From IMG/VR virus record IMGVR_UViG_2541047766_000003: DNA of 42,126 nucleotides; one strand, written 5' to 3'. The notes under the pieces were generated by a model. That model had not been told where the DNA came from. It was given only the letters and a program-made list of their open reading frames with translations, and ran no database searches. A program made the position numbers and the translations under genes. The first letter of the stretch is position 1. Every line of letters starts with the position of its first letter. Shown here in pieces: positions 1,150 to 37,084 of the stretch. The stretch comes from a virus (Duplodnaviria; Heunggongvirae; Uroviricota; Caudoviricetes).

Positions 1150-1862
1150 GCCTATAAGGCTCTCTTACCAGCCGCGCCCTAACAGGCGCACACGATCTGA
1201 CATTTGCATCCAACTTCGTTACTTACGGCCCGTAAACGGGCTGCCCGGATAGGGAATCGATAACTGCTCTCCCATTTTATCCTCTTCAAGCTGGTGCTTT
1301 ATGTAATCCTGTATCTTCGCCGTGTTCTTACCCACTGTATCGACGTAGTACCCTCTGCACCAGAACTCCCTGTTCCTGTATTTGAATTTCAAATCACCAA
1401 ACTGCTCGTAAAGCATCAGACTGCTTTTCCCTTTCAGATATCCCATAAACCCGGATACGCTCATTTTAGGCGGGATCTCCACAAGCATATGGATATGATC
1501 TGCACAGCATTCAGCTTCCAGAATCCGTACGCTTTTCCACTCACACAGCTTTCTCAAAATACTGCCTATTGCTCTACGCTTCTCTCTGTAGAACACCTGT
1601 CTTCGGTATTTTGGCGCAAAAACTATGTGATATTTACAGTTCCATCGGGTGTGCGCTAAGCTCTTTTCGTTCCCCATTGGGACCCCCTTTTGATTTCTTG
1701 TTTGACACTTGCAGTTGCCAGACCGCAAGGTGTTTTAACAAATCAAAAGGGGTTTTAATAACTGGCTCAAAGCTGAAAGCTTTCCGGAACCCCCAGCCTA
1801 GCTGGGGGTTTTCTGTGCACAAAAAACCCTCTGTAGTAACAGAGGGTTTTGTTCATTCATAG
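1150..1862 (-). mobile_element. IS200 (IS200/IS605 family) insertion; boundaries approximate
   Basis: Contains a tnpA whose product matches IS200 TnpA as recalled; two hairpins upstream of tnpA (aaaaccctctgt-agtaa-cagagggtttt and cccccagcc-tag-ctggggg) typical of the IS200 left end; size ~0.7 kb. Confidence 0.75.
1219..1677 (-). CDS. tnpA: IS200 transposase TnpA (Y1/HUH type)
   Basis: 152-aa product MGNEKSLAHTRWNCKYHIVFAPKYRRQ... with HxH motif (ADHIHMLVEIPPK); start chosen at internal Met of the track ORF 1219..1728. Confidence 0.9.
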   Translation of the reverse strand: MGNEKSLAHTRWNCKYHIVFAPKYRRQVFYREKRRAIGSILRKLCEWKSVRILEAECCADHIHMLVEIPPKMSVSGFMGYLKGKSSLMLYEQFGDLKFKYRNREFWCRGYYVDTVGKNTAKIQDYIKHQLEEDKMGEQLSIPYPGSPFTGRK

Positions 1863-1976
1863 TGCAGGGTCAAATCATTCCCACTCAATTATTTACGGCA
1901 CGCATAACCAATTGACTGGTAACAACTTTCTGTAACCTGATTTTCACCGTACCGTTTTATATACCGTCACCGGAAA

Positions 1977-3398: not shown

Positions 3399-3798
3399 CG
3401 TCTTTTCTCCCCGGAATTAACTCGCGTGGATTATCGGAACGGTGATAGAGCCATATACCAATACGCACAGCGACAATTGCTGACACGAATGCGCCTGCAG
3501 AGAAAACAATCCCTTCTTCAAAAGAGTCCTGCGTGATGGTAGGGATCAGGCTGGCTATGCCGATAAGAATTGATGCTGCTGGTTTGTAAAAGAGAAGGCC
3601 GCAAAGAAAGCTGAGCATCGACAGGAGCACCCGGCGACGGATGGGGTACTCTACTGCAGAGGTAACAAAAATTACCGCTCCAGCCAAAGCACCCAAAGCA
3701 ACCTCAGGAGGAACTCCTGCTATCACCGCCGCCAGAGAACTCATGCTAAGCCACTGATTTAAAGTTTCACTGGTTAGTTGAGCTGACATGTTTTCCAC
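3385..3798 (-). CDS. Putative holin/antiholin-like membrane protein
   Basis: Several predicted TM helices; first gene of the lysis cassette. Confidence 0.5.
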   Translation of the reverse strand: MENMSAQLTSETLNQWLSMSSLAAVIAGVPPEVALGALAGAVIFVTSAVEYPIRRRVLLSMLSFLCGLLFYKPAASILIGIASLIPTITQDSFEEGIVFSAGAFVSAIVAVRIGIWLYHRSDNPRELIPGRKDDGNA

Positions 3799-6474: not shown

Positions 6475-6578
6475 GTTAAATCTCCAGATAGTCGCAGCAC
6501 CCGTTGCGCCGCATATCTGGTTATTCTATTACCTGAAAAACCACATATGGATAGAAAGACTATAAATACCAATAGATA

Positions 6579-6650: not shown

Positions 6651-6669
6651 ATTGCATGGAGAAGATAAG

Positions 6670-6927
6670 ATGCAGCAGTATCACTATCCACTGGAAGACG
6701 GATTTACCGAAAGGATTCACACGCCGGGAGGCGTCAGGTCACTGGTGGAGGGATCGCACTTGATGAAATTACTCCGGGATCTCGATAAGGATGGATTTAA
6801 TGTCGATGGCCCACTTGCCGAACTGACTGCACTGATTAACTACGTCACCAGCTCACAGATGTCTATGCAGGATCTGCAAACACATCTCGACTATTGTGCC
6901 GAACAATTACGAAAACAAACCACATAA
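6670..6927 (+). CDS. Small protein (85 aa) homologous to C-terminal domain of the Bro-N protein; candidate SOS-controlled antirepressor
   Basis: RBS ggagaag then ATG; ...LMKLLRDLDKDGFNVDGPLAELT...DLQTH aligns with the C-terminus of 8075..8770 (...LMNLLNQLQDDGHDVSGAAAELT...DIQTH). Confidence 0.6.
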   Translation: MQQYHYPLEDGFTERIHTPGGVRSLVEGSHLMKLLRDLDKDGFNVDGPLAELTALINYVTSSQMSMQDLQTHLDYCAEQLRKQTT

Positions 6928-6932
6928 AGAAA

Positions 6933-6950
6933 AGGCCGCTAGAGCGGCCT
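6933..6950. terminator. Hairpin terminator between convergent genes
   Basis: aggccgc-taga-gcggcct; T-run follows on the minus strand. Confidence 0.5.
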
Positions 6951-7677
6951 ATCGTTTCGCTTTGTGCTCGTCCCAGCACGTTTTACACCATGCCATTAAG
7001 CCATCCGCATTTTGATTATTAGGGTAAAAGCTGGTTCGTTTTCTGCGGACATTACAAATTGGGCACCACTTCATATGACGTGTATTCTTTGGGCCATCGA
7101 GACACCTTGCACACCACTTAGTCAATCCATCTGGATTTTTTGACGATTTCCTGAACTTCTCATACGGAAGGTTTATTCTGCATCGCAAGCACTGCTTGCT
7201 ACCACTTGAAACTCTGTTAGCTGATTCTTCTTTTGGCGGCGATACAGAAGGTATTCTTGCTGGCTCTGATACTGCCTGAGGTGCTTTTTTAGATGACTGA
7301 GACGATATGTCATCACCAGGGAATCTTCCATGATATGCCGGAGGCGTTGACACTCCAGGTGGAAGCTCAGCTGTAAACGGCTTTGGCTGAATCAGTTGCC
7401 TCTCTTTTGCTAACTCCTGCTGTTTATAATATGTCTGGATTACCGCACTATCATAAGCAGGAGGTGCGGAAATATTAGGCGCATTACCTCCAGTTTTTTG
7501 AAACTGAGTAGAGGTGTGTTCTATCACCTGTGTACGATTAATCGTTATCTCCCCATCTTCGGTCTTTATCGTTTTGTTATGATTAACGACCGTACGATCA
7601 GAGATCTTAGTCTTGTTCTGGTTGATAACGTAAATAATCACCGCAACCACACCAACAACTATCCAGAAAACTTCCAT
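6949..7677 (-). CDS. Membrane-anchored protein with two PPAY motifs and a tandem C-terminal zinc ribbon
   Basis: N-terminal TM helix (VFWIVVGVVAVIIYVI); APPAY and TPPAY; four CxxC pairs (CLRC, CARC, CPIC, CKTC). Confidence 0.6.
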   Translation of the reverse strand: MEVFWIVVGVVAVIIYVINQNKTKISDRTVVNHNKTIKTEDGEITINRTQVIEHTSTQFQKTGGNAPNISAPPAYDSAVIQTYYKQQELAKERQLIQPKPFTAELPPGVSTPPAYHGRFPGDDISSQSSKKAPQAVSEPARIPSVSPPKEESANRVSSGSKQCLRCRINLPYEKFRKSSKNPDGLTKWCARCLDGPKNTRHMKWCPICNVRRKRTSFYPNNQNADGLMAWCKTCWDEHKAKR

Positions 7678-7697
7678 TGCTTTTCCTCACAATAACA

Positions 7698-7712
7698 TTA
7701 CCTTAAAGGTAA
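7698..7712. promoter_or_regulatory. Operator-like palindrome TTACC-TTAAA-GGTAA overlapping the promoter of 6949..7677
   Basis: 21 bp upstream of the minus-strand start; TTGATC -35-like element upstream on the minus strand. Confidence 0.5.
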
Positions 7713-7790
7713 TATCTTGCTTTCAGGTGATCAAGCGCTAAACGCCACCAACCAAATACGGTTGATTTTTATATACCTCCGCGCTTATCA

Positions 7791-7805
7791 TTACCTTTGC
7801 GGTAA
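7791..7805. promoter_or_regulatory. Operator-like palindrome TTACC-TTTGC-GGTAA with rightward promoter (TTGATT-18 bp-TATCAT)
   Basis: -35/-10-like hexamers immediately precede the palindrome; would transcribe toward the Bro-N gene. Confidence 0.45.
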
Positions 7806-8074
7806 ATTTACATCGCACTCCTCTTGTGTCATAGTAATCGGGCACTGGAAAAATCCAGTGCCGGGATTGGCGTCCCGGATTACTAAAAGGCGCATTCACC
7901 GCGCAAGCGGTTTTTTTATGCGTATAGCACGGCCACATTCGTATTATGGTGGGCTGTGTGGGGGCACCGAAAGGTGCGCCGGGTCCTTTTAGCCGGTTAC
8001 GCCAACCCTGCACAGTTCACCACCAACCGATTGGCGTCGGTAGTGGTGATTAACCAGACTAAAAGGTAACCACT

Positions 8075-8770
8075 ATGACAGCTACAAAAAGCACGTCCAT
8101 TTTTTCTTTCGAATCCCAAGCCGATATACGGGTAATCGTCATTAATGGTGAGCCATGGTTTATCGCTTCAGATGTTTGTCGGGCTATAGGCATAGCAAAC
8201 CATCGAGATGCTGTTCGAAAACTTGATGATGATGAGAAGGGCGTCGCTTCAACCGACACCCCTGGCGGTGAGCAAGAATCGATCATCATCTCCGAGTCAG
8301 GCCTCTACACACTGATCCTCCGCTGCCGCGATGCGGTGACACCAGGCACTATCCCCTACCGCTTTCGTAAATGGGTTACAGGTGAGGTTCTTCCTCAGAT
8401 CCGCCGCACCGGAAGTTACATTAAAAACTCGCTCCCGCAGGAAGAACGCATAAAGATGGTTGCCGACCAGGTAGCCAACGCCACGGCGTCAGCAGTAATG
8501 CAGGCGATGAAGATAGAGAACAAAACCTACAGCGCCCCGCTGAAGCCCGGCTACCGTAGCCTGATTCACTCGCCGTCTGGTGTTCTCGGCCTGACGGAAA
8601 ACTCACTGCTGATGAATCTGCTGAACCAGTTACAGGACGACGGGCACGATGTATCGGGCGCGGCGGCGGAGCTGACCACCATGTTCTGCTACATCGTCGG
8701 TGTGAGCAAATGCCTGCGTGATATCCAGACGCACGCGGAGTACATCAACGACAAAGCAGGGTTCTTCTGA
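8075..8770 (+). CDS. Bro-N domain protein, antirepressor-like
   Basis: N-terminal Bro-N signature (FSFESQADIRVIVINGEPWFIASDVCRAIGIANHRDAVRKLDDDEK); C-terminal domain is paralogous to 6670..6927. Confidence 0.8.
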   Translation: MTATKSTSIFSFESQADIRVIVINGEPWFIASDVCRAIGIANHRDAVRKLDDDEKGVASTDTPGGEQESIIISESGLYTLILRCRDAVTPGTIPYRFRKWVTGEVLPQIRRTGSYIKNSLPQEERIKMVADQVANATASAVMQAMKIENKTYSAPLKPGYRSLIHSPSGVLGLTENSLLMNLLNQLQDDGHDVSGAAAELTTMFCYIVGVSKCLRDIQTHAEYINDKAGFF

Positions 8771-8778
8771 CGGGCGGT

Positions 8779-8797
8779 GGCACAGGGATGTGCCTTT
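8779..8797 (+). terminator. Hairpin terminator after the Bro-N gene
   Basis: ggcaca-ggga-tgtgcc followed by ttt. Confidence 0.4.
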
Positions 8798-8842
8798 AAA
8801 TAATTCTGTACAGATTGCAGACTGTGGGTGAATAGCGTACTA

Positions 8843-8857
8843 TTACCTTAAAGGTAA
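8843..8857. promoter_or_regulatory. Operator-like palindrome TTACC-TTAAA-GGTAA overlapping RBS region of 8870..9037
   Basis: Identical 15-mer to the 7698 site; ends 13 bp before the ATG. Confidence 0.5.
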
Positions 8858-8869
8858 AGGAGGCGCGAT

Positions 8870-9037
8870 ATGACAGCGTTGAAAAATCGTACTCAGCACA
8901 ATAAACAAGCCAAGCAATGCTGGGATGTCATTGGAAAAGTTATGCTTGGCCGCGCAAGCAAAGAGCGCGACAAGGATATGGTTTACCAGACAGGAACATC
9001 TTTCAGCGACTTCAAGGCGGCATTTCGCTCCAAATAG
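8870..9037 (+). CDS. Small basic protein (55 aa), unknown function
   Basis: Strong RBS aaggagg 7 nt before ATG; not in the ORF track because under 60 aa. Confidence 0.5.
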   Translation: MTALKNRTQHNKQAKQCWDVIGKVMLGRASKERDKDMVYQTGTSFSDFKAAFRSK

Positions 9038-9057
9038 AAGCACATCAGGAGTTTTCC

Positions 9058-9498
9058 TTGAAGTTTAACATTAGAATATCTAATAGTTTTCTACATGGGG
9101 AAAGCAACACCCCTTTCGCTGTAGACGGACCTTTCCTTACTGATGATGAAATAAAAATCATACAAAGTTTTTTAGAGGATGTTGCCAATGGAAGGGCGCT
9201 TGTTGGAAAAAACAAGCCCTCGTGGGTTGATGATAACCATGATAAAATTCCCGGCTCAGACAATTATGAGCAAGAGAATTATTGGCATTATCATTGTGGG
9301 CCAACATGGTATCCAAACACATTTAAGAATTATACCATTAACTTAAATTTCAACCCTGGCGGAAGGCATTCTAATGAATGCATTCATTATGCAAAAAATG
9401 ATAATGAAATTGTCATTGTTGGATTTTCAAGAGAACACATACCTTTCCTTTCATCAGATGGAAACAACAATCCGCTTTTTAATGATGAAGAAGAATAG
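9058..9498 (+). CDS. Hypothetical AT-rich accessory protein (~146 aa), probable TTG start
   Basis: Open frame has no internal Met after the track start at 8917; RBS caggag 5 nt before TTG 9058; AT-rich; acidic C-terminal tail. Confidence 0.45.
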   Translation: MKFNIRISNSFLHGESNTPFAVDGPFLTDDEIKIIQSFLEDVANGRALVGKNKPSWVDDNHDKIPGSDNYEQENYWHYHCGPTWYPNTFKNYTINLNFNPGGRHSNECIHYAKNDNEIVIVGFSREHIPFLSSDGNNNPLFNDEEE

Positions 9499-26681: not shown

Positions 26682-26758
26682 GTGGCATTAGCTCAGTTGG
26701 ACAGAGCAACCGCCTTCTAAGCGGTTGGTCGCAGGTTCGAATCCTGCATGCTACGCCA
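26682..26758 (+). tRNA. tRNA-Arg (anticodon TCT)
   Basis: Cloverleaf folded by hand: acceptor GTGGCAT/ATGCTAC, D-stem GCTC/GAGC, anticodon stem ACCGC/GCGGT with loop CTTCTAA, T-arm GCAGG-TTCGAAT-CCTGC, encoded CCA. Confidence 0.85.
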
Positions 26759-36442: not shown

Positions 36443-37027
36443 ATGAAAAGTATCCAGGACGTCCGCAGGCAAAATCTCAACGACTTGATCGACCGTGAAT
36501 TCAATGGTGTTCAGACGCGGATGGCTGAAAAACTTGGAACTCAGGCAAATCTGGTAAACCGCTGGGCTCTTGGCAAGAAGGTTATCGGCGACCAGGTTGC
36601 GCGAAAAATTGAAGCTGCCGCCAATAAACCCCGTAACTGGCTTGATATCGATCGCTCGCTTTCTCAGGAAGGTTTTCAGCCTGTCGGCCCAAGCGACATT
36701 GGTCAGCTGGCGGCTCACAACCTGGAACGCTGGATGAGCGAAAGCCGCGACCTTTCAACACAGGGAAAACTTCACCGCGCATCCGGCGTCGCCCAGGTGA
36801 CAATCAGCCGCCTGTTAAACAATGAGGTCAGCGTTTCCATTTCCACCCTGGAGAATGTTGCATCTGCATTCGGGCGTCACGGATATGAACTACTGATTCA
36901 CCCGCACGACCCTGCAACTATCAACTATGACCGCTCGCGCTACGCATTGTTACCTGAAACCGAGAAAGCAAAGATCGAAAGTTACATTGAATTTGTCATC
37001 AACCAGAACGAAAAAAACAAACAATAA
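36443..37027 (+). CDS. Prophage repressor, dual-HTH, without LexA-like peptidase domain
   Basis: Position between the divergent cro-like gene and the pL-side operon; two HTH-like segments; no Ala-Gly/Ser-Lys S24 signature. Confidence 0.7.
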   Translation: MKSIQDVRRQNLNDLIDREFNGVQTRMAEKLGTQANLVNRWALGKKVIGDQVARKIEAAANKPRNWLDIDRSLSQEGFQPVGPSDIGQLAAHNLERWMSESRDLSTQGKLHRASGVAQVTISRLLNNEVSVSISTLENVASAFGRHGYELLIHPHDPATINYDRSRYALLPETEKAKIESYIEFVINQNEKNKQ

Positions 37028-37072: not shown

Positions 37073-37084
37073 TTGCCTATACTA

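Follow-up and report, generated by a model that had tools for sequence, protein, structure and literature searches.

The structured leader that precedes a Bro-N domain gene in the DNA analyzed here is very probably the leader of an immunity operon of the phage P1 immI type, in which a c4 antisense RNA controls the antirepressor. The DNA, a stretch of 42,126 nucleotides from a virus of the Caudoviricetes (IMG/VR record IMGVR_UViG_2541047766_000003), is referred to below as the window, and the leader occupies the interval between nucleotides 7806 and 8074. A scan of the whole window with Rfam placed two families, isrK and C4, in this interval, both on the plus strand, in full length and above their gathering scores, with E-values of 1e-13 to 1e-15. 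Judged from its sequence, what lies ahead of the Bro-N gene is not an unknown leader but a control module already known from phages, in an ordinary copy. This module has been studied best in P1 and in the Salmonella prophage Gifsy-1, and in it the ribosome-binding site of an antirepressor gene is masked by a small processed RNA. The families are curated in Rfam, and the phiV10 lineage simply lacks the annotation. The assignment gives a function to an unannotated 280-bp gap in this phage and predicts how the Bro-N antirepressor would stay silent in the lysogen. In a wider context it contributes nothing that is new in kind.

The phage and the regulated gene

Sequence comparison identified the window as a prophage of the epsilon15/phiV10 type (Uetakevirus). 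The region from 7600 to 8800 has 99.1% identity to Escherichia phage TL-2011b; its identity to phiV10 and vB_EcoP_ZX5 (Uetakevirus) is 96-98%. A terminator is the sole mark in the gap in the phiV10 record, and the TL-2011b record carries none of these RNA features. The module itself is present in 279 phage records, many Stx phages among them.

The gene that follows the leader (8075..8770, plus strand) encodes a putative antirepressor of 231 amino acids with a Bro-N domain (Pfam PF02498, E = 2.3e-21). Its nucleotide sequence can be compared with that of phage vB_EcoP_ZX5, which is 98.4% identical to the window over this stretch. Overexpression of ORF4, the anti-repressor of that phage, lowered the prophage titre about 1000-fold, from 10^9 to 10^6, and so shifted the phage away from lysogeny (PMC9782041), and an antirepressor role of the Bro-N gene in the window fits this drop. 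The same recent study described the protein, but no RNA control of it (PMC9782041).

Both structure prediction and a covariance search had been proposed as checks in a sequence-only reading of the interval, according to which it could be an attenuator or small RNA gating antirepressor expression. The two analyses gave positive results: besides the isrK and C4 matches, the 285 nucleotides from 7806 to 8090 have a predicted folding energy of -119.2 kcal/mol, compared with -87.2 +/- 5 kcal/mol in 200 shuffled sequences, none of which folded as well (z = -6.4). A tRNA or tmRNA was ruled out as the identity of the interval, since the sole match found by ARAGORN in the window is a tRNA-Arg at 26682, outside the interval.

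The short RNA and its terminator

The first of the two elements is a predicted RNA of the isrK type (RF01394), or a1b1 leader, at 7842..7917 on the plus strand; its match covers model positions 1-77 with 76.7 bits, the gathering score being 50. Hairpin 1 of the isrK/c4-a1b1 fold (7842-7861) has the arms GGCACTGG (7841-7848) and CCAGTGCC (7855-7862), and in an alignment of 53 loci it is 91% paired with five covarying pairs. Hairpin 2 (7862-7877) carries in its loop the site a1, TTGGCGT (7867-7873), which is complementary to the a' site of the c4-type RNA described below. The site b1, CTAAAAGG (7883-7890), is the complement of b', and it lies in a single-stranded segment. An intrinsic terminator begins 8 nt after b1 with the stem ACCGC (7898-7902)/GCGGT (7907-7911) and ends with a T-run at 7917. 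The terminator is conserved, and in the same alignment its stem is 88% paired with two covarying pairs.

In a terminator scan this was the sole plus-strand terminator-like site inside the interval, a result that bears on the description of the leader as a series of terminator-like hairpins. All three stem-loops noticed in the sequence-only reading lie where it had placed them, and the term is apt for the hairpin at 7898-7911 with its T-run. It does not apply to the other two, the first being hairpin 1 of the isrK/c4-a1b1 fold and the third an inner hairpin of c4; the run CCTTTT that had been read as the tail of the third hairpin is a targeting loop, b', and not a terminator tail. An extended stem that encloses the terminator (7890-7895/7918-7923) appears in the minimum free energy (MFE) fold of the leader, but it is not supported, being only 41% paired in the relatives, no better than in shuffled sequences.

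The relation of this element to the leader of P1 is apparent from both of the models concerned. The c4-a1b1 family (RF03163), defined as the a1 and b1 targets of C4 antisense RNA, matched nucleotides 7829..7881 in a permissive scan (E = 1.4e-8) with 39.5 bits, which is below its gathering score of 46.7 and speaks somewhat against the assignment; P1 scores 51 bits. Both hairpins of that family are present in the window, with a1 in the loop of the second. Conversely, the isrK model matches the P1 leader, including its terminator hairpin, with 35 bits, so that the P1 leader and isrK can be regarded as the same kind of element.

Putative promoters and operator

Two putative promoters precede the short RNA. 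The downstream one, TTTACA-17-CATAGT (7807..7835, plus strand), was found in a promoter scan and is conserved in the family. Its -10 hexamer is of the TG-extended type, and it is the counterpart of P1 promoter P51b: in the Rfam c4-a1b1 alignments the CATAGT of the window occupies the model positions of the P51b -10 hexamer (TATAGT). The -35 and -10 hexamers are in a constant register in about 60 distinct loci, the window included, and the end of the -10 precedes hairpin 1 by 7 nt. This fixed register supports the predicted start of transcription at about 7842, where the isrK model begins. The upstream promoter, TTGATT-18-TATCAT (7762..7791, plus strand), had already been pointed out from the sequence and is present as described; it is sigma-70-like, scores 9/12 and may be the counterpart of P1 P51a. 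Its -35- and -10-like hexamers are retained in five loci (L014, L066, L077, L083 and L118) in which the upstream DNA is otherwise unrelated, which makes a tandem arrangement of promoters like that of P1 plausible.

The operator-like palindrome ATTACCTTTGCGGTAAA (7790..7806), which the sequence-only reading had also recognized, overlaps both the -10 and the start of the upstream promoter and ends directly next to the downstream -35. Its half-sites are retained with a different spacer in two other loci (L083 and L103). With up to two mismatches allowed, the window contains 15 copies of the motif ATTACCnnnnnGGTAAT, where 1.1 would be expected; this number was reached in 0 of 100 shuffles. The copies cluster around a gene at 36443..37027 that encodes an HTH_3 protein, which looks like a repressor that would bind operators scattered over the prophage.

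The c4-type RNA

The second element matches the C4 antisense RNA family (RF01695) in full length at 7942..8027 on the plus strand, with 77.7 bits against a gathering score of 45; P1 c4 itself scores 68.8 bits with the same model. By alignment with the c4 annotated in P1 (48343..48419), the mature RNA is predicted to comprise the 77 nucleotides from 7948 to 8024, and it would be excised from the operon transcript. Folded alone, this piece assumes the c4 shape with -45.1 kcal/mol, and the predicted molecule has a tRNA-like stem and a 3' tail consisting of ACC followed by A. The long closing stem (7947-7963/8006-8022, plus strand) is 99.9% paired with seven covarying pairs in the 53-locus alignment, and the first inner hairpin (7964-7977, plus strand; GGCACC/GGTGC, 7963-7977) is 100% paired with three covarying pairs, while controls in which the helices were slid along the alignment are 35-47% paired. 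The second inner hairpin (7978-7997) exposes in its loop the site b', CCUUUUAG (7985-7992). The site a', ACGCCAA (7999-8005), lies in the junction.

An AUG is conserved at the 5' end of the c4 region and opens an ORF of 35 codons (7946..8053) that ends 22 nt before the Bro-N ATG. A Pfam search with this ORF gave no match. Comparison across 73 distinct loci revealed that the frame after the variable-length loop takes three forms, and that the length of the ORF ranges from 15 to more than 100 codons. In L006, L077, L083 and L118, four loci whose Bro-N-like genes are related, it is just 15 codons long. It is thus the nucleotide sequence that is conserved and not the peptide. A small protein encoded at 7946..8053 was rejected on these grounds, and the interval indeed holds no convincing ORF, as the sequence-only reading had stated; a conserved coding gene, which it had named as evidence against its proposal, was not found in the interval in this comparison.

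Target sites ahead of the Bro-N gene

Downstream of c4 the sites a and b occur a second time. The target hairpin of a2 (8017..8049, plus strand) was recognized from complementarity and covariation, and the site itself, TTGGCGT (8031-8037), is an exact 7-nt complement of a', with UUGGCG forming the loop. The inner stem of the hairpin (8026-8030/8037-8041) is 83% paired with four covarying pairs and its outer helix (8017-8023/8043-8049) is 99.5% paired with five, compared with 28-58% in slid controls. Because one side of the outer helix is the 3' strand of the c4 closing stem, this helix excludes the c4 fold and is possible only before processing. The site b2, CTAAAAGG (8059..8066, plus strand), is an exact 8-nt complement of the b' loop and overlaps the Shine-Dalgarno sequence AAGG; the Bro-N ATG (8075) follows 8 nt past it. 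The short duplexes at the a and b sites have predicted energies of -8.6 to -10.3 kcal/mol. A further hairpin, 8041-8047/8069-8075, with b2 and the Shine-Dalgarno sequence in its loop, is predicted in the window, and similar ones are predicted singly in the relatives. RNAalifold found no shared register for it (-1.9 kcal/mol), and it is kept here only as a single-sequence prediction.

Co-variation of the b sites across relatives

When IMG/VR was scanned with a pattern for the conserved core of c4, 120 loci were obtained. Those in which a' is ACGCC(AA) contain 29-30 different b' loops. The complement of the b' loop of each locus recurs in that same locus, downstream at a fixed offset (b2) and also upstream (b1). 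For b2 the longest exact complement has a mean length of 8.5 nt within the locus and 4.5 nt between loci; for b1 the values are 7.2 and 4.3 nt. A complement of at least 7 nt to the loop of the same locus is found at b2 in 27 of 29 loop types and at b1 in 20 of 29, but in only 22 of the 812 cross-locus pairs; in a permutation test of the summed own-locus complement, none of 10,000 permutations reached the observed value for either b2 or b1. The a pair is constant within the IMG/VR set, and P1 differs from it on both sides at the same positions (TTGACAG with CUGUCAA).

Pairing of the b'-b2 columns in the MAFFT alignment amounts to only 48-60%, a low value that is due to the variation in loop length, which ranges from 8 to 13 nt. 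For this reason the support for the b'-b2 pairing rests on the alignment-free comparison of own and foreign loops.

The position of b2 relative to the gene that it precedes is also maintained. In 52 of 56 distinct loci b2 is followed at 6-13 nt (mostly 7-11) by a start codon, and this holds for every type of gene downstream. These genes encode Icd-like proteins (62-81 aa; in many loci), proteins of about 120-187 aa, and Bro-N-like proteins (about 230 aa); since genes of several kinds follow b2, the RNA module can be considered a portable cassette.

Relationship to the immI region of P1 and P7

The closest model for this organization is immI of P1 and P7. According to the GenBank annotation of P1, that region includes the operator Oc4/Op51 (48140-48156), the promoters P51a (48155-48183) and P51b (48195-48223), a1 (48255-48261), b1 (48269-48276), the 77-nt c4 (48343-48419), a2 (48423-48429), b2 (48452-48459) and the icd ATG (48470). 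The window has all the RNA parts in the same order and at nearly equal spacing, and a putative operator likewise adjoins two putative promoters in tandem. As in P1, the leader has a1 in a hairpin loop, then b1, and then a terminator-like hairpin; the c4 fold, to which a length of 77 nt is attributed by homology, presents b' in a loop, with a' at the junction. In both phages a2 starts 4-7 nt past c4, b2 lies at a ribosome-binding site, and an antirepressor gene is found downstream. The distance from a2 to b2 is 28 nt in the window and 29 nt in P1, and repressor operators are scattered over both phages.

There are also differences. P1 has between c4 and ant the small gene icd, the translation of which is the direct target there, whereas in the window icd is absent and b2 directly precedes the Bro-N ORF; icd is a feature of the P1 operon and not of the C4 RNA family. 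The a and b sites are TTGGCGT and CTAAAAGG in the window, and TTGACAG and GTTAGTGA in P1. The operator of the window is a symmetric palindrome, unlike that of P1, the regulated protein bears a Bro-N domain, and the host phage is a small podovirus prophage rather than a plasmid prophage.

The function of the P1 element is known from earlier work. P1 c4 represses the synthesis of the Ant proteins (PMC8546580; PMC12197685), and it was described as a processed RNA of 77 bases by Citron and Schuster (1992), while Hartmann et al. (1995) reported that the C4 precursor of P1 and P7 is a substrate of RNase P. The c4 and a1b1 motifs were presented by Weinberg et al. (2010), in whose supplement a proposal made for P1 is quoted, namely that a1/b1 compete with a2/b2 as a decoy.

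Relationship to Gifsy-1 IsrK and to the APSE phages

The Gifsy-1 isrK-orf45-anrP region of Salmonella resembles the window in the full-length isrK match, the register of the promoter, the terminator, and the presence of an antirepressor gene downstream. Some of the transcripts initiated at the Gifsy-1 isrK promoter extend past the terminator, and a stable processed RNA that is complementary to IsrK, STnc1160, is found downstream of it (PMC4825925). The compensatory mutant pairs G28A/C162U and G31A/C159U restored the inactive conformation of the Gifsy-1 transcript (PMC4825925). When +1 is set at 7842, nucleotides 28 and 31 of the window fall in a1 and nucleotides 159 and 162 fall in a', which are the positions of these mutants. 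From this numbering and from the homology we infer that the "helix b-I" of Gifsy-1 would correspond to the a1/a' pairing. Hfq binding and trans-activation by isrK are known only from the experiments in Salmonella (PMC4825925). The regions are not alike in every respect: orf45 has 45 codons and its counterpart here 35, the latter being neither adjacent to the antirepressor start nor conserved, and the antirepressor of the window is a Bro-N protein, unlike that of Gifsy-1.

The APSE phages of Hamiltonella have isrK, then C4, then a Bro-N gene, in the same order and at the same spacing as in the window. This order is annotated in GenBank LR794146 and described in PMC7313666. The APSE module is about 71% identical to the window over 92% of the module. 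These phages belong to another genus (Sendosyvirus), live in another host and have other b' specificities; one target was assigned by the authors to a DNA polymerase gene some distance away (PMC7313666).

Proposed mechanism and alternatives

The features described above suggest the following mode of action. Transcription would start at about 7842 from a promoter adjoining the operator of the prophage repressor, and many transcripts would end at the intrinsic terminator at about 7917, which would produce an IsrK-type RNA of about 76 nt bearing a1 and b1. Transcripts that read through would carry the tRNA-like c4 RNA, which would be cut out as a 77-nt molecule (7948-8024). The a' and b' sites of c4 could then pair with a2, in its hairpin loop, and with b2, over the Bro-N Shine-Dalgarno sequence, and this pairing would block translation of the antirepressor and maintain prophage immunity, the specificity of which would be set by the variable b' sequence. 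The short RNA, having the same a and b sites, would most likely act as a decoy: it would titrate c4, and repression would be relieved when the short RNA is abundant. In the absence of icd, c4 would act directly on the Bro-N start site; P1 acts partly through translation-coupled transcription, and with icd missing here its mechanism cannot be transferred step by step. The idea of an RNA gate ahead of the antirepressor thus holds, in the form of a c4 and an IsrK-type RNA upstream of the Bro-N gene, although the gate includes a single intrinsic terminator instead of a series and is probably no classical attenuator. As read from the sequence, the regulator is a same-strand, trans-acting and probably processed RNA with two loops that would pair with two sites at the ribosome-binding site.

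Other modes of control have to be weighed against this c4-based repression. It is unlikely that the operon is activated through translational coupling in the manner published for Gifsy-1 IsrK, where a1 and b1 would pair in cis with a' and b' in an inactive form, the short RNA would act in trans to open the AUG at 7946, and translation of the small ORF would turn on Bro-N, the c4 region acting as mRNA and not as a free repressor RNA. The experiments with the homologous Gifsy-1 region support such a scheme, and their authors invoked a 45-codon ORF overlapping the c4 region rather than titration of c4 (PMC4825925). The window has an ATG at the equivalent place (nt 105 versus nt 107), opening the 35-codon ORF at 7946..8053, and the MFE fold of the whole leader does pair a1/b1 with a'/b' in cis. 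However, neither frame nor length of the ORF is conserved between loci, so that the model fits this locus poorly, and since the ORF stops upstream of b2, 22 nt short of the Bro-N ATG, coupling would need re-initiation. The pattern of nucleotide conservation is that of an RNA, with compensatory changes in the stems and a strong Rfam C4 score, and coupling does not explain why b2 lies at the Shine-Dalgarno sequence or why it co-varies with b'.

Control by antisense-mediated attenuation of transcription, exerted on read-through at 7917 or on Rho-dependent termination before Bro-N, appears less probable still. The precedent is satellite phage P4, whose CI RNA pairs with sites up- and downstream of itself and causes premature termination; P1 c4 also lowers ant transcription indirectly, and the intrinsic terminator 8 nt past b1 is conserved, which are points in favor of attenuation. 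In the case of Gifsy-1 the possibility was raised by the authors, and IsrK in trans increased the expression of a transcriptional fusion 8-fold, but the effect on translation was 139-fold (PMC4825925). The one alternative helix examined near the terminator, the extended stem at 7890-7895/7918-7923, is only 41% paired, and the fact that b2 covers the Shine-Dalgarno sequence in nearly every locus indicates that translation is the primary target. Termination control like that of P4 CI is possible as a second layer. There is hardly any probability left for a small RNA transcribed from the opposite strand across the antirepressor start, such as sar of P22. Sar is a cis-antisense RNA that is transcribed in this way across the start of ant, and it shares with the window the general theme of an RNA that limits translation of an antirepressor. 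The one minus-strand promoter-like match (7832..7805), which might speak for a similar RNA here, points away from the Bro-N start, while it is the plus strand that carries the Rfam matches of the interval, all conserved structure and the co-varying sites b1, b' and b2, and an Arc/Mnt-type gene was not seen next to the operon. Unlike sar, the regulator in the window is encoded on the same strand, would be cut from the operon transcript and would make two short loop contacts. The analogy with the P22 immI region drawn in the sequence-only reading was rejected on strand and architecture, sar being of the wrong family by virtue of its opposite-strand transcription; the correct relatives are P1/P7 immI and Gifsy-1 isrK (PMC4825925).

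If the c4-based scheme is extended to Gifsy-1, a common model for the two systems can be proposed, which we consider tentative, with chances slightly below even. Rfam isrK would be the a1b1 leader of P1, and the orf45/STnc1160 region of Gifsy-1 would be a c4 RNA; one promoter with a leaky terminator would give rise to two products, a short decoy and a long RNA including repressor and target, and the trans-activation by IsrK would be titration of c4. The short form of IsrK supplied in trans raised antirepressor translation 139-fold, and co-expression of the STnc1160 region with IsrK led to stronger, not weaker, growth arrest (PMC4825925); this latter result is not obviously predicted by a simple model of repressor and decoy, and it weighs against the scheme proposed for the window as well. 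Should the common model be true, the ratio of termination to read-through at the leaky terminator would set antirepressor production, and the approximately 30 variants of the b site would constitute a large family of mutually non-cross-reacting immunity types.

The side results obtained here are modest: the joint variation of all three b sites (b1, b' and b2) in about 30 specificities, the helix that competes with the closing stem of c4, and the coincidence of the positions mutated in Gifsy-1 IsrK with the a1/a' sites of the P1 type. Together they could help to reconcile the IsrK and c4 models, and the common model, if correct, would join two literatures that have treated these RNAs separately. 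A review of 2025 entered IsrK and c4 as unrelated (PMC12197685). In Rfam, isrK stands without a clan, and C4 and c4-a1b1 both belong to clan CL00128.

Alternative folding and variation around c4

A helix between nucleotides 8017-8023 and 8043-8049 shows strong covariation, being 99.5% paired with 5 compensatory pairs. Its upstream strand is the 3′ strand of the closing stem of c4, the C4-type antisense RNA, and its partner lies downstream of a2, one of the targets of c4. Since this helix uses the c4 closing-stem strand, the unprocessed transcript has two mutually exclusive folds: one in which c4 is formed and another in which an extended a2 hairpin is formed. Ordering of the folding pathway, definition of the 3′ end and a switch are candidate roles for the helix.

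A subset of the relatives (IMG/VR loci L015, L019, L023, L024, L027, L047, L061, L068, L069, L095, L098 and L119) includes an insert of about 38 nt that separates the terminator of the short RNA isrK from c4 (columns 117-154 of alignment A1, which compares the loci of the relatives). A TATAAT-like sequence is frequent within this insert, which is absent in the window. The insert may act as an additional promoter dedicated to c4.

In 46 of the 73 distinct IMG/VR loci (L003, L007, L019 and L022 are examples), the AUG located at the 5′ end of c4 opens a frame of 100 codons or more without a stop, and the b′ targeting loop is 12 nt long in every one of these 46. The long frames may be a product of chance in related GC-rich sequences. 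Many of them continue in frame to the ATG of the next gene, and they may alternatively be tied to the model of translation coupling proposed in the Gifsy-1 study, in which an ORF from the c4 AUG drives translation of the antirepressor.

Dispersed copies of the operator-like palindrome

A scan of the window for the 17-bp palindrome ATTACCnnnnnGGTAAT, allowing up to 2 mismatches, revealed 15 copies vs 1.1 expected, located at positions 3430, 6578, 7697, 7790, 8842, 17070, 26344, 29486, 29504, 33979, 34041, 35987, 36372, 37084 and 37146. Exact copies are found at 37084, and also immediately 5′ of the minus-strand ORF 6949..7677 and of the small ORF 6652..6927. Several sites flank a gene coding for an HTH_3 protein (36443..37027). 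Judged by sequence, this arrangement looks like that of a repressor with putative operators scattered genome-wide, and is similar to that of P1, where the repressor operators are likewise dispersed through the genome.

The ORF at 6652..6927 (+), located upstream of the Bro-N gene (8075..8770) and with a putative operator of its own at 6578, codes for 91 amino acids that match the C-terminal part of the Bro-N protein (amino acids 150-223; 42% identity over 74 residues, E = 2e-15). By this similarity it is a separate copy of the Bro-N C-terminal domain. The same position is occupied in phiV10 by p24, annotated as similar to epsilon15 p19. The product could be an antirepressor modulator, or the ORF could be a remnant.

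Beyond the Bro-N gene, a further copy of the palindrome (8842..8858) lies 5′ of two overlapping small ORFs on the plus strand, 8870..9037 and 8917..9498, neither of which had a Pfam match. The equivalent site in TL-2011b is annotated with a YafO-family toxin gene and, overlapping it, a hypothetical protein.

Left end of the window

An Rfam scan of the whole window identified a full-length match to STnc490 (146 bits) at 1687..1810 (-), directly upstream of a minus-strand ORF, 1219..1728, that starts MGNEKSLAHTRWNCKYHIVFAPKYRR. We take these two features to resemble a 5′ leader RNA and its IS200-type transposase. The sequence attgagtgggaatgatt, found at about 1873-1889 (-), is the reported attachment core of phiV10, epsilon15 and ZX5, phages whose integration site is the 3′ end of guaA (PMC9782041). 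Because of the location of this core, the prophage boundary is probably at about 1873-1889 and host chromosome probably occupies the left end of the window.
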